Source: Chiloscyllium plagiosum
Taxonomy: Eukaryota
Direction of reading: 5' to 3'
Assembly (NCBI RefSeq): GCF_004010195.1
Contig: NC_057718.1
Span: 57,489,023-57,520,405, forward strand
DNA length: 31,383 nt
The position numbers were made by a program, and so were the translations under genes. The notes under the pieces were generated by a model. The model had not been told where the DNA came from and made no database searches. It was given only the letters and a program-made list of their open reading frames with translations. This document shows, one piece after another, positions 5,948 through 31,383 of this stretch (its first letter is position 1; every line of letters starts with the position of its first letter).

Positions 5948-5983
5948 ATTCCTGATGAAGGGCTTTTGCCCGAAATGTTGATT
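5948..5983 (+). ncRNA. Minimal type I hammerhead ribozyme motif, slightly decayed
   Basis: CTGATGA (5952-5958), A, perfect stem II GGGC-TTTT-GCCC, GAAA (5972-5975), then TGTT, consistent with CpG decay of CGTC. Confidence 0.75.
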
Positions 5984-6777: not shown

Positions 6778-9066
6778 CTTACTCACCCATCCTCCGAGGA
6801 CCCCTTCTCCCACTCAAACATATTCCATCTACCTGGGCACCCCGTGCTGGTCTGTTACCTGCTCTCGACCTTTTTACCTCACTGCCGCCGTGACATTGAC
6901 CACCTCAACCTGTCCATCCCTCTAACCCACTCCAATTTCTCACCCTCACAAAACACAGCCGTCCACTCTCTCCGCTCCAATCCCAACCTCACCATTAAAC
7001 CAGTGGACAACGCGCAGTGGTAATTTGGCGCACTGACCTCAACATGGCTGAAGCTATGCGCCAACTCACGGTCACTTTCTTCTACTAGCCCCTCACCCAT
7101 GACCTCACCTCCCATCACAAACCATCATCTCTCAGATTATCCACAACCTCATCATCTCAGGGGATCTCCCATCCACAGCTTCCAATCTCATAGTCCCGGA
7201 AACCCCCCGCCACCCGGTTCTACCTCTTACCCAGAATTCACAAACCTGACTGCCTCAGTTGACATATTGTCTCTGCCTGCTAGTGCCCCATCGAACTTAT
7301 CTCCTCAAAGCTTGACACTCTCCTGTCCCTCTTGGTCCAGGAGCTCCCCACATACATTCAGAGCACCACCCATGCCCTCCGCCTCCTCCATGACATTTGT
7401 TTCCCTAACCCCCAATGCCCCATCTTCACCATGGACACCCACTCTCTGTACATGTCCATCCACCATGGCGAAGGCTTCTAAGACTTTCATTTCTTCTTCT
7501 TTGCCGATCCAACCAGTATCCCTCCACTGACACACTCATTCAATTGGCGGAACTGGTTCTCAATCTCAACAGTTTCTACTTCGAATCCTCCCACTTCCTT
7601 CAGACCAAGGGATAGCCGTGGGCACCCGCATGGGCTCCAGCTATGCCTGCCTAATTGTGGAACGGTCCATTTTACGCAGCTACACTGGCACCATTCCCCA
7701 CTTTTTCCTCCGTTACTTTGATAACTGTATTGGTGCCACTTCATACTCCCACAAGGAGGTTGAACAGTTCATCGACTTCACAAACACCTTCCGCCCTGAC
7801 CTCAAGTTCACCTGGACCATTTCAGAGACTTCCTCCCCTTCCTGGGCCTCTCCATCTCCATCCTCGGCAACCATCTCAACACTGACATCTACTTCAGACC
7901 CACCGACTCCCACAGCTACCTGGACGACACCACCTCCCACCCCTTCTTCTGTAAAAATGCTATCTCTTACTCCTAATTCCTCTGCCTCTGCCATATCTGC
8001 TCCCAGGAGGAGCAATTCTACTCCAGGACATCCCAGATGGCCTCCTACTTCAAGGACCGCAATTTCCCCTCCCACGTGATCAACAATGCCCTCCAGTGCA
8101 TCTCTTCCACTTACCGCACCTCCACCCTTTAACCCCACCCCTCCAGCTGCAACAAGGATAGAATGCTCCTGCTCATCACCTTCCATCCCACTAATCTCCA
8201 GGTACTGCACATTATTCTCTGCCATTTCCGCCACCTACAATCAGACCCCACCACAAGAGATATATTTCCCTCCCCACCCCTATCAACATTCCCTCCATGA
8301 ATCCCTTGTTTGGTCCATGCCCCACCCATCAAACCACCCTCCACTCCTGGCACCCTCTGTTGCCACCACAGGAGATGTATAATCTGCGCCCACATTTTCC
8401 TTCTCACCTCTGTCCAAGGCCCCAGTGGATCCTTCCACATCCGGCAGAAGATTTTCCTGCATCTCCAAGCATGTCATTCACTGTATCAGTTGCTCTCAAT
8501 GTGGTCTCCTCTACATTGGGGAGACAGGGCGCCAACTCGTGGAATATTTCAAGGAACATCTCTGGGACACACGGACCAAACAATTCCATTGCCTTGTAGC
8601 CGATCACTTCAACTCCCCCTCCCACTCCGCCAAGGGCATGCCAGTCCTGGGCCTCCTCCACCGCCAAATTAAAGCCACCCGATGCCTGGAGGAAGAACGC
8701 CTCATCTTCTGCCTTGGGATCCTCCAATCAGATGGCATCAACATCAATTTCACCAGTCTCCTCATTTCCCCTCCCTTTACCTTCTCTCAGATCCAACCCT
8801 CCAACTTGGCACTTCTTGAACTGTCCTCCCTGTCCATATTCCCACCCACCTATCCACTCCACCCTCCCGTCTGATCCATCACCATCACCCCCGACACTGT
8901 AACTACCTATTACATTTCCAGCTACCTTCCCCCAGCCCCAACCCCATCCTGTTTATCTTCCCACCTCACATATTCCTGATGAAGCACAAATACTCGAAAC
9001 ATCAACTTTCCTGCTTCTCGGATGCTGCCTGACCTGCTGTGCTTTTCGAGCGCCATACTTTTCGAT
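6778..9066 (+). mobile_element. Penelope-like retroelement (Neptune-type linker), 5'-truncated, frameshifted RT plus GIY-YIG endonuclease
   Basis: RT motifs FTMDTHSLY, QTKGIAVGTRMGSSYACL, FLRYFDNCIG (decayed YxDD) and PTDSHSYLD; Cys linker CCHHRRCIICAH; GIY-YIG segment VIHCISCSQCGLLYIGETGR...EH...VADHFN...LEEERLIF...GIN. Short TGCA duplication at 6774-6777 / 9067-9070. Confidence 0.92.
8972..9007 (+). ncRNA. Decayed minimal hammerhead motif in the PLE 3' end
   Basis: ATTC-CTGATGA (8976-8982), disrupted stem II, GAAAC (8996-9000), ATC. Homologous to 5948-5983. Confidence 0.6.
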
Positions 9067-9670: not shown

Positions 9671-9788
9671 AACGTTCCTGTGCCACTGTCGGGAGAGGAG
9701 ATTTGCCTTCATGATGGTATTGTGTCAGTCCAGCTGGCTGCAGCAAGTGCCACCTCAGATACACTTCCTGGCATAATGTTGACTTGAA

Positions 9789-10757
9789 CATCAAGTGTCA
9801 CTACATACTGAGGTTCTACCTGTCCCCGGTGTTGCGAAGGATGGGCCTGGCCCCGCTGCTGCGGAATGCTCTGAGTAGTTGGACCGTTCCGTATCACCTG
9901 TCCTTTGTGGAGATGTTTATGAAGAAAAACACCTTTGACCACAAGTCCATCAGGAAGTGGTCAGCACGTAATGTCCTTGAGGAAAAGGAGAGGGCGGATC
10001 CTATCGAGCGGTTCCCTGAGCAGACTGTCAAAGTCATTTGGCAGAATGCCTCATCGCCAGAACTTTCCAACAAGCACCAAGACACAGCTTGGCTGGTGAT
10101 GAGAAGGGCTCCGCCTGTGAGATCCTTTATGCACGCCCGGACTCTCTTCTGCACCACACGCTGCCCTCAAAGCGGCTGTGGAGGGGACGAGACTGTCACA
10201 CACCTTCTGGAATGTGCCTATGCAGAAGAAGTCTGGAGCGGAATGCAGTGGTGTTTGTTGAGGTTCGTCCCGAGCAACTCCATGACGCGGGACTCTGTGC
10301 TCCACGGTGTGTTCCCCGGGACACACACCGAGACGAACATCAACTGTGCCTGGAGGATCATCAACTCGGTGAAGGACGCTCTCTGGGCGGTCCGACACCT
10401 GTTGATCTTCCAGCTGAAGGAGTTGACCCCGACTGAGTGTTGCAGACTGGCACGTTCCAAGGTCCAGGACTACATGTTGAAGGACGCGCTGAAGCTTGGG
10501 GCAGCTGCCGCCAAGGCCCGGTGGGGAAAGACCACCATGTAACATCTGCTTGCCTAAGCACAGGGGTCCGACGCAGTAAGGGGGCTCCGCAGACCCCCCT
10601 GCTAAATATGTGGATAGTAATCGTACAGACCTGTATATATGAATGATTACTCTGTCTCTGTATGCCAAGAAATGGAACGTTTACATATGTATGGCATGAC
10701 CAATTGTACAGATCATCAAAATATTTATGAATAAAGTATATTTTTGAAATAAAAAAA
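9789..10757 (+). mobile_element. Tx1/L1-clade LINE, 5'-truncated, with poly(A) and perfect 14-bp TSD
   Basis: TSD AATGTTGACTTGAA at 9775-9788 and 10758-10771. AATAAA signals and an A-tail precede the right TSD. Many CpGs are retained. Confidence 0.9.
9790..10542 (+). pseudogene. Open 3' part of LINE ORF2 (zf-RVT / CCHC C-terminal domain); no RT or endonuclease
   Basis: About 250 stop-free codons with W...LSNKHQDTAW...CPQSGCGGDETVTHLLEC...VW, typical of the L1/Tx1 C-terminus. The ORF-track start (TTG) lies inside the TSD and is not a real start. Confidence 0.85.
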
Positions 10758-11058
10758 AATGTTGACTTGAAAATATAGTTTAGATGAGGAGTCTTTAAGG
10801 AGGCACAAATATGCAGGATCCAGGAAATGGAACTGGTCACATAGCCAGACAGTGAGACCGCATACTAACTCTGGTAGAGATTTGCAGGCTTTTGAAGAAG
10901 GTTGGTGGACATGCTCCTGGCAAGGCTGGGAGCACTGACCAGTTTGCAAGAGAGCTTACATACAATGGATGAGAGCATGGAGGAGGCAAGCTGTAACTTG
11001 TGTTCAAAGTTAAAAATCACACAACACCAAGTTATAATCCAACAAGTTTATTTGGAAG

Positions 11059-11093
11059 CACAAGCTTTTGGAGCGCTGCACTTTCATCAGGTG
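11059..11093 (-). ncRNA. Decayed minimal hammerhead motif (left PLE arm)
   Basis: Minus strand CAC-CTGATGA-A-AGTGC-AGC-GCTCC-AAAA-GCTT-GTG. G12 is lost and stem II has mismatches. Confidence 0.7.
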
Positions 11094-11474
11094 GTTGTGG
11101 ACAATAAGATTGTAAGACACAGAATTTATAGCAAAAGTTTACAGTGTGATGTAACTGAAAGTCTATGTTGAAAAAGACCTGGATTGTTTGTTAATCTCTC
11201 ATCTTTTTAGAATGACCATGTTGGTTCCAGTTCTTTCATATGTTATACGCAAAACTTTTTAAAAAAACGTCAGATTCTCAAATGAACTTCAACAATTGGT
11301 GTCATGTCGGCCCAGACAATGTATTGAAGGTGTTAGTTCCCTGTGAGGTGTCTGTGCCACAATGGTCAGACTGATTGTAATCTAAAAACAGATTTACAGA
11401 ATCTTACATGGATTCATGCAGTTTTTGAGCAAAGTAAAATGTAATTCTGCAAGTACATATTCACCCCACAAACT

Positions 11475-11672
11475 TGTGTGTGTGTGTGTGTGTGTGTGAG
11501 AGAGGGGGTGGGATGGGGGGTGTATATGAGTATCTGTGAGGGTGTGTGTGTGTGAGAATGTAAAAGGGTTTAAGTCTGTGAGAGGGTGTGTGTGGGAGTG
11601 CATATACGAGTGTATGAGAGTGTGTGTGTCTGTCTGTCTGTCTGTCTGTCTGTGTGGGTCTGTCTCTGTGTG
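11475..11672. repeat. (TG)n and (TGTC)n microsatellite tract inside the PLE 3' UTR; CA-rich counterpart at about 12605-12760
   Basis: (TG)12 at 11475-11498, (TGTC)n at about 11627-11652, with degenerate TG/AG repeats between. Confidence 0.9.
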
Positions 11673-13126
11673 AGTATAGTGCAATGGGGTCACCTGTAGT
11701 GTGACATGAACCCAAGGTCCCAGCTGAGGCCATCCCTATGGGTACCGAACTTGGCCATCAGCCTCTGCTCAGCTACTTTTCGTTGTTGCCTGTCCCGAAG
11801 CCCATTTTGGAGTACGGTCACCCGAAGGTACGAGGTCGAATGTCCCGGACCACTGAAGTGTTCTTCAACTGGGAGGGAACACTCTTGTCTGTTGATTGTT
11901 CTGCGGTGTCCATTCATCTGTTGACGTAACCTCTGCTTGGTCTAGCCAATGTACCATGCCTCAGGACATCCTTGCCTGCAGCGTACGAGATAAATAATGT
12001 TGGCTGAGTTGCATGAGTATCTACCACGTACATGGTGGGAGGTGTCCCCACGTGTATGGTGGTAACTGTGTTGACATTCTGACACATCTTGCAGCATCTA
12101 CCATGACAAGGTTGGATGGTACTGTCCTGAAAACTGGGCATTTTGCTATGAACAATGATCTGTTGCGGTCTGGTGGCTGTTTCGAGGCAAGGAGTGGAGG
12201 TGTGGGGAAGGTCTTGGTGAGATGCTCATCTTCATTGATAATGTGTTGCAGGCTGCGAAGAACATGGCGTAGTTTTTCAGCTCCTGGGAATTACTGGACA
12301 ACGAAGGGTACCCTCTTGGTTGCAGCTCGGTTTGTCTCCGGAGGAGGTCGTTATGTTTGCTCACTGTGGCATGTTGGAACTTGCAGTCAATGAGTTGAGC
12401 ATCATATCCCCGTTCTTATGAGGGCATCTTGGACAACACTTCAGCGATCTGGGACATTCGACCTCAGACCTTTGGGTGACCGTCCTCCAAGGCGGACTTT
12501 GGGACAGGCAATAACGAAAAGTGTCGAGCAAAGGCTGATAGCCAAGAAATGGCCTTCCCTGGGACCTTGGGTTCATGTCACACTACAGGTGATCCCATTG
12601 CACGATATACACACATGGACAGAGACAGACACACACACACACCTCATACTCTCACACATACACTCTCACACACATCCCCTTTACACTGACACATACATAT
12701 ACACACACCCTCTCACAATCATAACCCCCGCGCATGCACGTGCGCACACATACACATATAAGTTTGTGGGGTAAATTTGTTCTTGCAGAATTACTTTTAC
12801 TTTGCTCAAAAACTGCATGAATCCATGTAAGATAATGTAAATCAGTTTTTTAGATTAGTATCAGTCTGACCATTGTGGCACAGACACCTCACAGGGAACT
12901 AACACCTTCAATACATTATTTGGGCTGACATAACACCAATTGTTAAAGTTCACTTGAGAATGTAACTTTTTAAAAAGAGTTTTGTGATTTACATATGAAA
13001 GAATTGAAACCAACATGGTCATTCTAAAAGATCAGAGACTTAACAAACAATCCAGGTCTTTTTCAATATATAATTTCAGTTACATCACACCGTAAACTTT
13101 TGCTATAAATTCTTAATTTCCACAGT

Positions 13127-13161
13127 CACCTGATGAAGGAGCAGCGCTCCGAAAGCTAGTG
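13127..13161 (+). ncRNA. Intact minimal type I hammerhead ribozyme motif (right PLE arm)
   Basis: CAC / CTGATGA (13130-13136) / A / GGAGC-AGC-GCTCC / GAAA (13151-13154) / GCTA / GTG. Helix I is CAC:GTG, a palindromic AGCT replaces helix III, and the predicted cleavage is after CUA (13158). Confidence 0.85.
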
Positions 13162-14748
13162 CTTCCAAATAAACCTGTTGGACTATAACCTGGTGTGTGA
13201 TTTTTAACTTTGTACACCCCAGTCCAAGACCGGCGTCTCCAAATCATGACTTGTGTACAGGACTACATGCAGAGTATGACAGCATTTAATCCAATATGAA
13301 TTGAGTAGCCAGCTTGATCAACATCACACTGAAGCACATCATCATAGAATCTTTCTTGAAAATTTTCACAGAAGCTCAAATTGCCACTGCTTTAGATTAG
13401 GAATCCATGTTGGCATAGGTTATGTTCCTGCAGTGTTTTTCAACAGAGGTCAGGAGTTGCTGAGGCACTGTCCCACGAGAGTGCCCTCCTTAAGTACAAT
13501 AGCATTGGGTTAGAGTTAGGGCTAACCCTACTCCTAAACCACCACCCATGCTGCTACTGCCCTTCTCAGTGCTGCAGAGCCAGCTGGGCTAGTCTGCACT
13601 GGCCCATGCAAAGATGCTGCTGTCCACAACAGAGTACTAGAGACTCTGAGTTGTTGAGGATCACCTATCATGGACATTGGAATTGCAATGTTAAAAGCTC
13701 AGCAGCTTTTCACCTCCCAAGTTGTCACCACGAAGAAGACTCTATAGGGACATTGGAAACAACAATGGAGCACATAGAATAGAGACAAAAAATATTATTT
13801 TTGAGTATTATGTACACACAGAATAGAGCTGTTTAAGCAAATTTTCCCAAGGCCTGGAACCTGCTTTGAAATTGCAACAAACATCAATGAAATTTGAATG
13901 GTGGAATAACTGGGCTGCTGTACTAGAACAAAAATCCTCAGGTCAGTGGGCACTATTTAACTGCAATTCTGAAAACTCTAGGTAAATGAATAGAAGAGGT
14001 CAGATTAAAAGTAGTAGTTTTAAAGATTATGTATTAATTTTGTAAACCTTGATTTTGCAAATCATGTTGTTCAGAATACTGATTATTCTAATTGAAATGC
14101 ACAATATTAATCATAATTAATAAAACAATGAACAAAAACATTATTAGTATATCCATTAGCACAACTAATACAGACTAGCCCACTCTGACATATGCCTAAA
14201 TTAGAAGCACATTTGGACTTTGTATAGATCTGTCACTATTCATGCAGAACTAAATTTGTGATCATTACAAGCTGTTTAGTTTATGTGGTCATTGTTTCCC
14301 AGCTGCATGGTATCGTCTGTGAGCTGTGATGACTTTGCACGCTTTCAATCTCTGCCACATTAATCACCTATTAACTATGCAGGGTGAGTCTCAGAATGTG
14401 TCTCAATATTCTTTTTATGAACTTAACAATAAACCAGTGTGCCATCTTATTTCAATAGTTTCTGCTTATGTGGCTTCATCCTTATTGTCTTTTGAATGAT
14501 AGTATCTCTGTTGGTAGAGGCCTCTTTATTTAGAAGCTTGTGTTTTTCTCATCCCACTTCTGCTTCAATCAAATCACATTAATCAGATATCAATATTGTT
14601 GTAAAATTGAACCCTATTCTTAGAGGAAAGAACTCGAAAGATGGCACATAAGTTTTGTTAGTGACTCATAATGTTTGACCTCAAACTGTTTTGAGAAGAC
14701 TTGAGATCCTAGTTCTTAAAATATGGATCCAATGCCCTTAATGACAAT

Positions 14749-14888
14749 AAAAAAGAAACCTGAAAGAACTGTAGATGCTGGAAATCAGAGACAAAAACAG
14801 AAATTTCTGGAAAAACTCAGCAGGACTGATAGCATCTGTGGAAAGAAATCAGAGCTAATATTTTGGGTCCAGTGACTGTTCTTCAGAA
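14749..14888 (-). mobile_element. Mini Penelope-like terminus with decayed HHR and 12-bp TSD
   Basis: Minus strand (AG)TT-CTGAAGA-ACAGTC-ACTG-GACCC-AAAA-TATT-AGCT...GATGCT...CCTGCTGAGTTTTTCCAG. TSD CTTAATGACAAT (14737-14748) / CTCAGTGACAAT (14889-14900). Confidence 0.75.
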
Positions 14889-15029
14889 CTCAGTGACAAT
14901 CTTGCCATAGACTCAGACCAACCTCTTAGGGAAACCCATTTTTGACTAGCTTTACCACATCAAACCCATTTTTAATCAGGTTGCCAGTGAATCCATTTGA
15001 TCAGTACATTAGGAATGGAAGATAGGAAG

Positions 15030-15590
15030 CCAGAAAAGGAGAAAAGCTGATCATGGAGATAATGATTGGTGAGAAACAGTTGCCTGAAAGCAGCCCATAT
15101 CATGACAGGGCCTGGAGAGTAGGGTTTGGTAAAGGAATTTATAAGAAGTACTCAGGCTCTAACATTATTGAACTTGATATTGACTCTTGAAATCTGCAGG
15201 GTCTCTAAGCAGAAGATGAAATGCAGTTCTTCCAGTTTGGGCTGAGCCTTACTGGAGTCTTGCAGCAGGCTTGAGCCAGAGATGTTGGCATGGGAACATG
15301 GTGATATGTTGAAGAGGCAGGCAACTGGAAGCTTGGGGTCACTTTTATGGACACAAAGTAGGTGTTCTGCATGGTGTTCACCCAGCTTGCTTCTCATCTC
15401 CCCAGTGTAGAGAAGACAAAGTGTGAGCAGTCAATACAGTAGACTAGATTGAGTGAAGTGCAGATAAATCATTGCTTCACCTGGAAGATGTGTCTGGAGC
15501 CTTGAATGGGAAGGAGGGAGGAGATAAATTGGAAAGTTTTGCACCTTTTGTGATTACATGAGAAGATGCTGTGGGGAAATGTTGGGACAC
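15030..15590 (-). mobile_element. Penelope-like GIY-YIG endonuclease fragment
   Basis: FICTSLNLVYCIDCS...KLGEHHAEHL...LPVACLFN...KLEELHFIFCLETLQISRVNIKF, parallel to 8425-8760. Confidence 0.85.
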
Positions 15591-17929: not shown

Positions 17930-18794
17930 TATAGCAATAGAAGCATGGAGCAAATGAATGTGTTGCTGGAGAGATGATGCAGGAGGGAAGGCTTTAGATT
18001 TCTAAGGCATTTTGATGATTTCTGGAGGGGTGGGACCTATACAGGTTAAATAGGTTACATTTGACAGAAACAGAACCAACATTCCCTTGGGGAAGTTTGC
18101 CCAGAGAGTCCAGGGATGTGCAGGCTAGGTGAATTAGCCATGGGAAATGCAGTGTTACCTGGATGGGGTTGGCTCTAGATGGGATGCTACTTGGAGGGTT
18201 TAAACTAAACTGGCTCGGGTATGGGATTCTGACAAATAGTTCAAAGGGTAAAGAAACCGAGATGGAATTAAAATGCTAGGATGTAAATCTGGAAGTCGGA
18301 GGAAAATTGGGCTGGAATACAATGAAGTGAATTTAACAAGGCTAACTGAAATATATTTTAGTGCAAGGACCCTGAGGAGTAAGACAGATGAGCTGAAGGC
18401 ACAGCTTGGTAATGTGGGAGTATGATATCATAGCTATGAACAAGACTTGGCTGACAGATGGAAAGGATTGGCAGCTCAATATTCCTTGTTGCAGGCTCTT
18501 CAGATGAGATGAAGAGAGGGATGGATGGTTGGGGGGTGGGGGGAAAGCAGGGATGCAGGTGTCACAATATTGTTAAGGAATCAATTATAGCATTGAACAA
18601 GGATGATATCTTGGAGGGATCATGAAATGAGGCCATATGGGTAGAAGTAGCAAACACAAAAAAAGGCCATGACACTATTGGGCATGTACTGTAGACTCCC
18701 AGTCAGGGAGAGATATAGAATCAAATATATAATCAAGTTTCAGAGAAATGTAAGAATAATAAGGCAATACAAGTGATGATTTTAACTACCCAAA
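17930..18794 (+). mobile_element. CR1 fragment: end of ORF1 esterase and start of ORF2 AP-endonuclease
   Basis: Homologous to 30790-31383: CRREGFRFL, YFSARTLRSKTDEL, EYDIIA...TWL, DDFNYP (GDFN motif). Confidence 0.8.
18097..18199 (+). mobile_element. Internal V-SINE fragment with no head or tail, embedded in CR1
   Basis: TTGCCCAGAGAGTCCAGGGATGTGCAGGCTAGGTGAATTAGCCATGGGAAATGCAG...TTGGAGGGT matches the SINE body (reverse complement of about 18850-18940). Confidence 0.8.
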
Positions 18795-19113
18795 TCATAG
18801 ATTCCCTACAATGTGGAAGCAGCCCATTCAACCCATCAAGTACACACTAAACCTCCAATGAGCATCCCACCTAGAACCACCCCCATCCCTGTAAACCTGC
18901 ATTTCCCATGGCTAATCCACTTAGCCTGCACATCCCTGGTCCATTCACCATGACCAATCCTCCCTAATTGTCAAATCTTCAGACTTTGGGAAAGACCCCA
19001 TACAGACAGGGGGGAATATGCCAACTCCACACAGGCAGTAACCCGAGGGTGGAATCGAACCTGGGTCTTTGGTGCTGTGAGGCTGCAGTGATAACCATTA
19101 AGCCACTGTACCA
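18795..19113 (-). mobile_element. V-SINE (HE1-like) variant with an internally duplicated module
   Basis: Minus-strand A box TGGCTTAATGG, B box GGTTCGATTCC, V core, two AGG..GGATT.G.CATGG modules, and tail GTAGGGAATCTATGA. Confidence 0.88.
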
Positions 19114-22554: not shown

Positions 22555-22810
22555 TTGAAATTACAGCACAGAAACAGGCCTTTCTCCTTGCTAGGTCCAT
22601 AGCAATGTTTATGACTCCGCTGAAATTAACTAATCCTGTCTGTATGTTCTTCTCTTCCTTTCTTACTCAGGTTCTTAAAGCTCGCCCTTAACGACACTAG
22701 TGACATTTCCCTCAGTTATTCCAGCTTCTAACCATTATATTGATGAGGATGTTTTTTTCCTCAAATATTTATTTGTGATTATCTTATATTTATGACACCT
22801 AGTTGTACTC
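22555..22810 (-). mobile_element. Decayed CR1-type 3' end
   Basis: GAAATTACAGCACAGAAACAGGCC is the reverse complement of the GGCCTGTTTCTGTGCTGTA tail motif. Confidence 0.5.
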
Positions 22811-24759
22811 ACTCTGAATTGCTGTGACCCTCCAGTGCCCTTACAGTCTACATCACCCCCTCAAACCTTCTCTGATGCTCCAACCCTCCCCCAATCCACA
22901 CACGTGACCTGATTTCTCCACCTACACCGCACATAGCCAACACCATACTTACCAGAGTGAGCACTCCCCTTAAGTGGAAACATTGACCCAAATCTTTCAA
23001 AGACCTGCAATGACCACCAAATTGTCTCTGCTACCATTTTCCCCCACAGTGTTGGAACTCTACATTTTTGGCCAGGACTTCCAAACCTTACCTCTTTATA
23101 AATGTGGCATAAACCTGAAATCTGAGTCCTTCTTTATGGTGCAGTTTGTTTTTGGGAAGACAAACTATGACCCCTTGTATGGCACTACCTGCCACATTCT
23201 GGCAAGTTAATTTACTAACATGCTGAACTTTAAGTAATCTTTTGGTGTGTTAGTAAAAGAATGTGAGTGAGGTAAATGGGTAAGTGGTTCAGGTGCCAGC
23301 TGGTAGAGCAGTAGAGAGGTAAGGGGTTACAATGACAAAGTGATTGAGCGACAGAGTGGTATAAGGCTTGGTAGGTTAACTAGGTTGGCTGTAGATGGGT
23401 AAGGTGGAGAAATTAGGTCATGTTGAGGCATTGAGGGAAGGTTGGAGCGCCAGAGGAGATTTGAGGGATTTTGGAGATTGAAACATCAGGAAGGGTACTG
23501 GAGGGTCAGGGCAATTCAGCATGAGTCAAAAGGGAATTGGATGGTCAGGGAGGCTTCTGTGGTTGAGGGGTTCAGGAGAGACGGATCAATTCAGGGTCAG
23601 ATGATCAAGGAGTCACTGACATGTATGGTGTCAAATGTTTGAAAGTAGTTGGGAGTCAGTGGGTAGTTAGAGGAACAGGGAGCAAGTCAGGGGTCGGCTG
23701 ACAGGTCAGGGAGGGGAGTTAGGGGTTTTGGTTGTGCACTTCTGTAGAAGTTAGACATTCAGTTCAGGAAGGCAAGTGTTTGAACTCTTTGACTATAATT
23801 TAGAGTTGGAGATTTTTTCAGCAGGTTCTGAAGAACAGGAGAGTTTATGCCAGAAGATCAAACTTCCTGTGCAGGTCCCATGGAGTTAGTGCATTGGGTC
23901 CTCTGGGACAATCCTGACACATATCTTGAGTTTTACACCCATTTGCTGACGATCTGGAAACCAGGAGATCTGGGCTATATTCTTTACATCTACCCTATCA
24001 AAGCTATGAATGATTTTAAAGGCCTCTATTAGGATTACTTTCTAGCATTCTTTTTCATTGAGAAAAGAGCTTCAGGCTGAGCAACCTGACCTAATAGTTG
24101 TAAGCTCTCAGTTCTAGTACCTTCTTTTATGTTTCATGTGATAACTGTGGTTGACTGGCATGCACAATGCATTTGTTGCATCTGCTTTGTTATTTTTAAC
24201 TGGTCCCATGGATAATGTTATATAGTGCTGTTACCCCAGTCTTCTAGATAAGTGCCATACATAGAGAACATTGACAAAATTGATGGAAGTCACAGTACAA
24301 CAAAAGAAATGAGTGAATCCAAAATGAAAACTTGGTAAGCATGAAGGTGGCTCACATATCTATTTGAGATTGAGTTACATGTTAATGTCCATGCTGATTT
24401 GTCTTTAATGATATATGAAAATTGCCCCTTGGGGAAGTTGTACAGTTTAGTTGACTTTCGAGAATCTCAAATACTCAAAACAATAATGCCTGGCTTCACA
24501 TTACCAGCCTATTTGATATGCGATTAGATAATATAATATGAAAATAAATTATAATTAGAACTTGTTTGGATGTGTGTGGCTGAGTTATAAGAAAGAAGAA
24601 TTTGCATGATCCCATTTCTTTGAAAAATCTTGCAGAACTTGCAATAGATATTTACTTTACTATGCAGTGACTATAGCTCTGCTGCATTTGGTATGATTTC
24701 TCAAATTGTCATGATATGAATGATGAGCAGGTTTCAACATTGACAATTGATGAAGAGTG

Positions 24760-29349: not shown

Positions 29350-30165
29350 GTTACCATGAGGGCATGGCCCGTCCACAACCAAGAATACAGCAGTCTGAGC
29401 TTTTGTTGCAACAAGTTGGGCTTTTATGGCAACAAGCTTCCACTGCTGCACTGGGAGTTGGTTGCCTTGCCAGTGCAGCAGTAGAAAATGAGATATTGGC
29501 AACCAGTTGTTGCATCACAGGTAAATCCGTAAATGCTCCCATGCAGTTGACCATTACTTCTATACAAAAAAAGTTGGGCTCCAAACTCTGTACAGAATTT
29601 TGTGTCAAGTTGAAGCCAAATTCCTCTATGCTTCTTGCCAGTGGTAGGTCTGCCAGTACGCTAAGAATTTTGGCTTGTATGGCCATCAGCATCCTCTTAC
29701 AAGCTAGTTCATTGCAATCATCATCTGTGTTTCCTGTAGAAAAACTTGTCTGTGATCTTATCCTCCATTGACCTGGGCATATCACTTCCCATGGCAGATC
29801 CAGCCCACTTATGTCTGGTGACTCACCACATTTTGATTCTGACTGTATCCTATCTTCTATGATTTGATTTGGAGGTGCCGATGTTGAATAAAGTTAAAAA
29901 TCACCAGGTTATGGTCCAACAGGTTTATTTGGAAACACCTGTTTAAGGAGCAGCTCTTGGAAAGCTAGTGCTTCCAAATAAACCTGTTGGACTATAACCT
30001 GGTGTTGTGTGATTTTTAACTTCTAAGATTTGAACAGCATCAGAGTCTAAGCTGATGACTACAATTCTTAGATCAAGATGTAGGTTACCTTCATTTGAAA
30101 CTCGCAACCTTTCTCATATGGCTGCACTGCCTGTTCATGTGGCAGTCCTTGGGAACCTGAAAGTA
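29350..30165 (-). pseudogene. Decayed convergent partner ORF, probably the Harbinger accessory gene
   Basis: 144-codon open stretch (29785-29351) similar to the 10890-13300 remnant and tail-to-tail with the transposase fossil. No Myb/SANT domain seen directly. Confidence 0.5.
29868..30019. mobile_element. Palindromic mini-PLE (two inverted termini around one decayed HHR) with 14-bp TSD
   Basis: Both arms match 13127-13248. TSD CTTCTATGATTTGA (29854-29867) / CTTCTAAGATTTGA (30020-30033). The HHR at 29936-29970 has a mutated core, CTGTTTA. Confidence 0.88.
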
Positions 30166-30169
30166 GCTC

Positions 30170-31383
30170 CTGCTCCTCACAGAACGCGTTAGGGAAGTGG
30201 AGCTGGAGTTGGATGAACTGAGGATTATTCGAGAGGCTGAGAGGGTGATAGATAGAAGCTACAGGGACATAGTTACGCCAGAGAACAGAGATAGCTGGGT
30301 AACTGTTAGAGGTGGGAAGGGGAGGAAGCAGGCAGTGCAGGGATCCCCTGTGGTCATTCCCCTCAACAATAAGTATACCGCTTTGGATACTGTTGGGGGG
30401 GACAGCCTATAAGGGGTAAGCTGCAGTGACCGGGTCTCTGGCATGAGGTCCGGCTCAGAAGGGAAAGGGGGAGAGGAGGAGAGCGCTAGTTATAGGAGAC
30501 TCTATAGTTAGAGGGACGGACAGGCGGTTCTGTGGACATGGGCGAGACTCTCGGATGGTTTGTTGCCTCCTGGGTGCCAGGGTCCGAGACGTCTCGGACC
30601 ATGTCTTCAGAATCCTTAAGAGGGAGGGTGTGCAGCCAGAAGCCGTGGTGCACGTTGGCACCAACGATATAGGTAGGAAGAGGGGTGGGGAGGTCATTCA
30701 GGAGCTCAGGGAGTTAGGCTGGAAGCTAAAAGCTAGGATGGACAGAGTCATCATCTCTGGGTTGTTGCCGGTGCCACGTGACAGTGAGGCAAGGAATAGG
30801 GAGAGAGTGCAGTTGAACACGTGGCTGCAAGGATGGCTTCGGAGAGAGGGCTTCAGGTATTTGGACAATTCTGGGGTAGGTGGGACCTCTACAAACAAGT
30901 AGGTCTTTAGCTGAACCAGAGGGGTACCAAAATCCTGGGGGGATATTTGCTAATGCTCTTTGTCGGGGGGGTTTAAACTAATGCAGCAGGGGAATGTAGT
31001 TCCAGTGTACGGGAGGTTGAAGGTAGTGAGGTCAGAGATAGGTTTACAAGGTCGCGAGATGGCACCTGCAATCAGGATATTGGATTGAAATGTGTGTACT
31101 TCAATGCCAGGAGCATCTGGAATAAGATGGGTGAACTTGCAGCATGGGTTGGTACCTGGAATTTCGATGTTGTGGCCATTTCAGAGACATGACTCAAGGA
31201 GGGACAGGAATGGTTGTAGCAGATTTCAGGAATTAGATGTTTCAGTAAGAGTAGAGATGATGGTAAAAGAGGTGGGGGGGAGCGGGGTGTGGCATTGTTA
31301 ATCAAGGGTAGTATTAGAGCAGCTGAGATAACATTTGAGGACTTATCCGCTGAGGTAGTTTGGGCTGAGGTTAGTAACAGAAA
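30170..31383 (+). mobile_element. CR1 LINE 5' region: ORF1 (coiled coil plus SGNH esterase) and start of ORF2 AP-endonuclease; runs off the window
   Basis: ELELDELRIIREAE, IPLNNKYTAL, LVIGDSIVRG, VVHVGTND, WLRREGFRYLD; then CVYFNARSI...FDVVAISET*L. Contains stops and frameshifts. Confidence 0.92.

Follow-up and report, generated by a model that had tools for sequence, protein, structure and literature searches.

The minimal hammerhead ribozymes of metazoan Penelope-like elements (PLEs) are reportedly treated by Lunse, Weinberg and Breaker (RNA Biol 14:1499). The motif, its location in the PLE pseudo-LTR (pLTR) and the model in which it cleaves as a dimer are already known, with the kind described in 2014 (Cervera and De la Pena 2014, PMC4209133) and the dimer model restated in PMC6765202 and PMC6155905. 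The Schistosoma monomer was found not to cut and its dimers cut weakly (PMC4209133), one of nine dimer elements from Xenopus cut (bioRxiv 10.64898/2026.07.22.740005), and the Anolis hammerhead cut only with the element's protein, was dispensable for insertion in vitro and had no RNA-seq read ends (PMC11167929). The in vivo role of the PLE hammerhead is an open question (PMC8557442, PMC11167929). For cartilaginous fish, no literature on PLE hammerheads was found besides the single chondrichthyan genome in which the same preprint reports non-LTR retrozymes; the group is unnamed in the main-text sections of PMC4209133 that were covered, the supplementary metazoan alignment of which may list a shark family.

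The window analysed here is the whole 31,383-nt stretch of the Chiloscyllium plagiosum contig NC_057718.1. Read position by position, its plus strand carries a 35-nt minimal type-I hammerhead at 13127-13161. Helix I is open and short (13127-13129 with 13159-13161, three of three pairs), which at 3 bp is inside the 2-5 bp range of PMC4209133, and is followed by the CUGAUGA box (13130-13136), an unpaired extra A inserted between positions 9 and 10.1 (13137), stem II (13138-13142 with 13146-13150, five of five Watson-Crick pairs and a 3-nt loop, with G10.1-C11.1 as the closing pair), the GAAA box (13151-13154), a self-complementary AGCU palindrome in place of a helix III hairpin (13154-13157), and A17 at 13158, after which the sequence pattern predicts cutting. 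The invariant core is intact at 11 of 11 positions (C3, U4, G5, A6, G8 and A9; G12, A13 and A14; A15.1; U16.1), and the cut triplet, CUA, conforms to the NUH rule (PMC3884650). The original prediction had listed the full core, the 5-bp stem II, the 3-bp helix I, the extra A and the AGCU, all of which were found as placed, and its identification of a minimal, dimer-type hammerhead of the PLE kind is borne out by the agreement of anatomy and pLTR context with the published features; read from the sequence, the motif is confirmed as a PLE pseudo-LTR minimal hammerhead of the dimer type.

The motif resembles the metazoan PLE minimal hammerheads of PMC4209133 in its type-I form, full core, inserted base at 9/10.1, G10.1-C11.1 pair, palindromic positions 15.2-16.2 and loopless helix III, and also in its pLTR position, its occurrence as thousands of scattered single copies left by truncated elements, and its opposite-strand pairs. 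The stems, with 5 bp in stem II and 3 bp in helix I, differ from those of Schistosoma (7-8 and 4-5 bp) and D. virilis (6 and 2 bp) in the same source (PMC4209133), as do two further traits from the minimal hammerheads described there: the cut triplet here is CUA, and 2 kb, not 100-700 bp, separates the opposite-strand copies.

Two kinds of scan had been proposed with the original prediction and they gave different outcomes. The full minimal descriptor matched once on both strands of the window, compared to an expectation by chance of 0.0033 per window (300 dinucleotide shuffles), and a looser pattern of core plus stem II matched twice (the 13127 motif and 5952) compared to 0.28 expected for the window from shuffles. 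The covariance models of Rfam, at E up to 5, gave the window two weak matches, both away from the motif and neither of them to a hammerhead, and the bare 35-mer is unexceptional in fold stability against shuffles (z -1.14), so that recognition depends on sequence pattern and context. These last two results are what would be expected if the match were a chance arrangement of letters. Against such an origin, only 0.0033 matches are expected per window, the motif is located where published PLE hammerheads are found, and the window contains another PLE family whose hammerhead combines the same core with different stems; chance is already refuted by the descriptor count and the comparison of motifs, and is vanishingly improbable.

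The hammerhead sits in a single insertion at 11004-13248 that consists of head-to-head arms, a one-sided tail and an 8-bp target duplication. The main copy (11004-12430, minus strand) is a 5'-truncated PLE, of Neptune type by its motifs, in which the remains of an ORF are followed by the pLTR. The second copy (12429-13248, plus strand) is inverted, likewise 5'-truncated, comprises the end of the endonuclease region plus the pLTR, and bears the hammerhead near the outer end of the inverted repeat that the two arms form (11000-11868 against 13217-12429 by blastn). Over 12761-13217 the arms differ by 51 mismatches in 456 aligned columns (11.2%), and the rate is the same inside the hammerhead (4 of 35) as upstream of it (43 of 365). 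An optional extension of the pLTR, the 'tail' (31-35 nt; 13214-13248, plus strand), is confined to this end of the insertion; an exact 24-nt pattern derived from it had no matches among metagenome contigs and none among viral contigs. Target-site duplications of 8 bp, exact on both sides, occur at 10996-11003 and 13249-13256 (a shared 8-mer has a background of 0.015 in windows of such size), contigs of the family end at 13247 (510 loose ends in the DNA run X11), and depth is single-copy from 13264 on. Because the exact 8-bp flanks and the point at which the family contigs end coincide, the structure is read as one insertion with an inverted 5' arm, a layout of inverted arm, one-sided tail and target duplication that has been described for such elements (PMC8557442, Fig. 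2 legend; PMC3846280).

The ORF remains of the main copy are broken by four stops in one frame and by frameshifts. A GIY-YIG-like endonuclease at about 11723-12022 includes a CCHH motif read in translation and matches the endonuclease of a neighbouring element (tblastn E 1e-6), the neighbour's own Pfam match to GIY-YIG being weak (E 0.021, below the cut-off), while Pfam found no family in the ORF remains of the 11004-12430 element itself. Just upstream of the endonuclease domain, in one frame, is a C-x4-C-xx-C linker; linkers of the form CX2-5CxxC are absent in Penelope and Poseidon, present in Naiads and reduced in Nematis (PMC8557442). The element is therefore assigned to a putative Neptune type by these motifs and one tblastn match rather than by a tree, the RT core having been lost by truncation. 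The copy at 11004-13248 cannot be autonomous, because that core is lost and a tandem upstream pLTR is lacking.

Compared to Neptune-type insertions (Craig et al. 2021, PMC8557442; Arkhipova et al. 2013, PMC3846280), the locus shares the C-terminal GIY-YIG-like domain with CCHH and the CX2-5CxxC linker, as well as the head-to-head inverted arm, the tail at one end and a target duplication of 8-10 bp, and differs in the loss of the RT core and the absence of a tandem upstream pLTR. As in PAc, the Poseidon of Anolis carolinensis (Frangieh et al. 2024, PMC11167929), the pLTR hammerhead is followed by an optional tail, of 30-40 nt in that element, and RNA-seq ends do not pile up at the cut site; PAc is an intact Poseidon that was tested in vitro, whereas the element here is broken and has the Cys linker that Poseidon lacks. 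Non-LTR retrozymes (bioRxiv 10.64898/2026.07.22.740005) also have a type-I hammerhead derived from PLE pLTRs, but consist of head-to-tail tandem units, and here there is no tandem array: none of the six tandem repeat rows of the window covers the hammerhead. A non-LTR retrozyme was rejected, as head-to-tail tandem units are absent at the motif.

Several related hammerheads are found in the window. That the sisters at 11059-11093 and 29936-29970 carry core mutations had been predicted correctly. The first, in the main-copy pLTR, has G12A, three of five stem II pairs and U17, and its minus-strand orientation, which had been omitted, makes it antisense to 13127-13161 when read on the plus strand; the second, of the same family, has A6U, G8U and three of five stem II pairs. 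A hammerhead of a second PLE family (5949-5982, plus strand) has an intact core, a 4-bp stem II, a damaged palindrome and U17, and has a decayed sister at 8973-9006 (plus strand), behind a broken PLE ORF at about 7000-8760. The helix III 4-mers of these two second-family copies carry opposite CpG-type changes, which implies a palindrome other than that of the 13127-13161 family. Within the latter family none of eight pairs changed on both sides, a count of uninformative size from four rows, one of which is the inverted arm. Against the 5949 copy, both partners are replaced and pairing is preserved at stem II pairs 3 and 4 and at helix I pair 2, in what is a comparison of two families with no statistic. 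Decayed PLEs apart from the 11004-13248 insertion were noted at two places in the window, a long one at about 7000-9056 (plus strand) with remains of RT and GIY-YIG and a strongly C-rich strand, and a third, more decayed PLE endonuclease at ~14805-15403 (minus strand; tblastn E 2e-5) with a faint pLTR match at 14805-14887.

The repeat family to which the motif belongs is very large and very common. In the DNA run X1 (organism A), 81,055 of 23,619,928 contigs match the 751-nt stretch 12900-13650, as do 63,930 of the 20,052,824 contigs of X11 (organism B); summed contig depth was not taken as a copy number. The majority letter of the family differs from the window at 19 or more of 349 positions (5.4%, a lower bound, with 34 element positions among the variant rows listed), placing this copy about 5% from the family majority. 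Features private to this copy are a 14-nt deletion near 13113 and the bases at 13125-13126. At that divergence, the 15 core positions would survive with a probability of 0.42-0.43 and the whole 35-mer with 0.13-0.14, and at least one of the three family copies in the window would keep its core with a probability of 0.81. An intact core is thus expected by chance, given a probability of about 0.43 at ~5% divergence, and nothing calls for selection to account for it. A contig from organism B crosses the right junction (13205-13541) with 10 other letters and stops short of the motif, from which it follows that the insertion predates the split of the two organisms.

An age great enough for the insertion to be common to organisms A and B, together with identity of the hammerhead to the family majority at 13143, 13145 and 13150 (the three inside positions among the rows listed), could be explained if selection had kept the motif intact for a host role, as an intronic or 3'-UTR ribozyme that has been domesticated. 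This explanation is highly improbable: the intactness equals the chance expectation, and no host coding exon was detected in the window. Pfam matches occurred in three of 22 frames (GIY-YIG, zf-RVT and GDSL-like), all of them mobile-element-like, and in none of 142 further reading frames, a set without the eight frames that overlap the ORF of the element; a scan of this kind could miss a small exon or an intronic location.

The original prediction held that this copy could still be catalytically competent. That stands for the bare sequence, which is intact; at the locus it is opposed by the want of an intact same-strand partner in the window, by the antisense sister, by flanks that disfavour the fold, and by an intactness that neutral decay would already produce. 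The sister at 11059-11093 was rejected as a dimer partner, being on the opposite strand, and the closest motif of the family on the same strand is mutated and lies 16.8 kb off. In the energy model, plus-strand RNA through the whole insertion would form a long hairpin in which 33 of the 35 motif nucleotides pair with the antisense of the sister (duplex -58.2 kcal/mol). Stem II is predicted to pair with a probability of 0.88-1.0 in six contexts, while helix I forms in the prediction for the bare 35-mer alone (0.84-0.89, compared to 0.02 or less with flanks), since, once flanks are included, the cut site is taken up by a rival hairpin at 13151-13166. The probability of the hammerhead monomer fold is 0.11 for the bare motif and 0.0003-0.003 in five longer contexts with at least 10 native flanking bases. 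Energies were -16.3 to -17.3 kcal/mol for the active dimer topology, -18.2 to -24.8 kcal/mol for two monomers and -25.5 to -32.1 kcal/mol for the best cofold. An active dimer is not favoured by these modelled energies, which are not decisive and weigh little, as the model ignores Mg2+, core and tertiary contacts, help from protein and pseudoknotted dimers, and has no means of scoring a dimer whose strands swap via the self-complementary stem II. By analogy with the Schistosoma motif (PMC4209133), an engineered tandem dimer of the motif might cut slowly.

Taken together, the most probable history begins with an active parent element, the partial-tandem transcripts of which would carry two hammerheads, with the AGCU palindromes pairing mutually to supply the missing helix III of 4 bp, and with cutting after A17 that would be slow and probably aided by the element's protein; for the PLE family these steps are those of the literature, and for this subfamily they are presumed. 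A single event placed the copy in the genome as the inverted 5' arm of an element truncated at its 5' end, as the head-to-head arms, the one-sided tail and the 8-bp target duplication show, and its hammerhead would have escaped mutation by chance during the ~5% decay since. It would most likely be silent at the locus, having no intact same-strand partner, and full read-through RNA would pair the hammerhead with the antisense of the sister at 11059-11093. Overall, it is very probable that the motif is a standard PLE pseudo-LTR hammerhead left in a dead insertion and predicted to be inactive in place.

Transcription of the family was evident in a single-cell poly(A) run, X21, in which 4,423 of 12,955,460 reads match the family stretch; 65 of the 4,423 are at least 99% alike, so expression of this copy is possible. 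The RNA evidence comes from this one run, as X22, from the same sample, gave 0 reads and constitutes no test. Of the reads over the hammerhead, 86% have one orientation, which is the sense strand according to the position of the A-runs. No RNA reads of X21 fell on the unique flank at 13264-13650; a sense transcript with poly(A) added at 13186 would end before it. No pile of RNA starts or ends was reported around the cut site in X21, and read depth across it was 2314.7 compared to 2494 (ratio, 0.93), so that uncut polyadenylated family RNA is shown to exist; a poly(A) run is unsuited to seeing the 3' product, which would be about 30 nt plus a tail. A GT insertion behind 13158 in 504 of 2,973 RNA reads (17%) was rejected as an RNA-level event at the cut site, because it also occurs in DNA contigs (64 in X1 and 28 in X11, along with loose ends behind 13161), which makes it a subfamily variant, a GT duplication at 13158-13159.

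The poly(A) signals of the family lie just past the hammerhead. A hexamer, AATAAA, at 13168-13173 (plus strand) is followed 12-15 nt later by family-level poly(A) addition points at 13185 and 13188 (plus strand), about 28-30 nt after the cut site, and then by a GU/U-rich stretch (to 13206). Reads running into A-stretches numbered 715 behind 13185 and 950 behind 13188 (1,665 of 4,423 in total, mostly from other copies). A common variant at 13169 (32% of X1 depth) changes the hexamer to ATTAAA, the second commonest poly(A) signal. On balance, the family poly(A) site at 13185-13188 is probably in real use, with genomic A-runs possible in a few copies. No report of a poly(A) site in PLE pLTRs was found in the literature, including the covered parts of PMC2377424, with most sources judged from listings.

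These data also bear on whether the copy is cut in vivo, in which case a sense transcript would begin within the right arm, receive its poly(A) tail near 13186, and lose that tail through cleavage in trans with another family RNA or with help from PLE protein. Silence at the locus is countered by two considerations: a transcript with its start within the right arm would not include the antisense arm, and abundant family sense RNA means that trans partners exist. In favour of cutting, mutations are absent from core, stem II and palindrome; transcripts of the family are plentiful, largely sense, and carry poly(A) 28-30 nt past the cut site; and the PLE hammerhead of Anolis depends on addition of the element's protein for cleavage (PMC11167929). 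However, RNA starts and ends do not pile up and depth is nearly level over the cut site (a weak test, as a 3' product of 28-30 nt would hardly be retained), reads 99% alike to this copy amount to 65 of 4,423, published rates are low (none for the monomer and low for the dimer; PMC4209133), eight of nine Xenopus dimer elements were without cutting (bioRxiv 10.64898/2026.07.22.740005), and no read ends were found at the Anolis site (PMC11167929). Cutting of this copy in vivo is quite unlikely, and inactivity in place remains the preferred reading. It is very unlikely, and depends on a hypothetical cleavage, that the pairing of pLTR hammerhead and poly(A) site acts as a repeat-borne deadenylation switch, in which copies would end many host or read-through transcripts and trans dimers or PLE protein would cut off their tails.

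The single copy is of little weight, as motif, location and dimer model were already published, but the abundance and strong transcription of the family make it a sensitive test bed for in-cell hammerhead cutting. Two leads are offered by the family, the poly(A) site just past the cut site and fold-back junctions that cluster at helix I. One such junction in the window belongs to a separate fold-back insertion of ~160 bp (29865-30022), in which an inverted pLTR end with tail and a direct pLTR end, both of the 13127-13161 family, meet at helix I; the insertion contains the mutated sister at 29936-29970 and is flanked by a 14-bp repeat with one mismatch (29854-67 and 30020-33). In its inverted arm, the terminal base is the one directly past the cut site, and helix I is lengthened to about 50 bp (z -12.3). 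Strand-switch joints that connect 13126-13129 to 13159-13166 also recur among the DNA contigs of the two organisms, in at least four of the 15 joints listed, with 1-6 contigs each; these resemble the 29865 junction and may mark either the cut site or just microhomology at helix I.

Other mobile-element remains were observed elsewhere in the window. A zf-RVT domain at 9715-10542 (plus strand; Pfam E 1.6e-6) is followed by an A-run, to 10758, as in a LINE-type 3' end, and a GDSL-like lipase/esterase domain is found at 30447-30902 (plus strand; Pfam E 4e-8), GDSL-like domains being known from ORF1 of CR1/L2-type elements. Further inverted repeat pairs (18110-18939, 22807-23526, and 89-181 with 19014-19106) are 76-87% alike and had no hammerheads in the scans.
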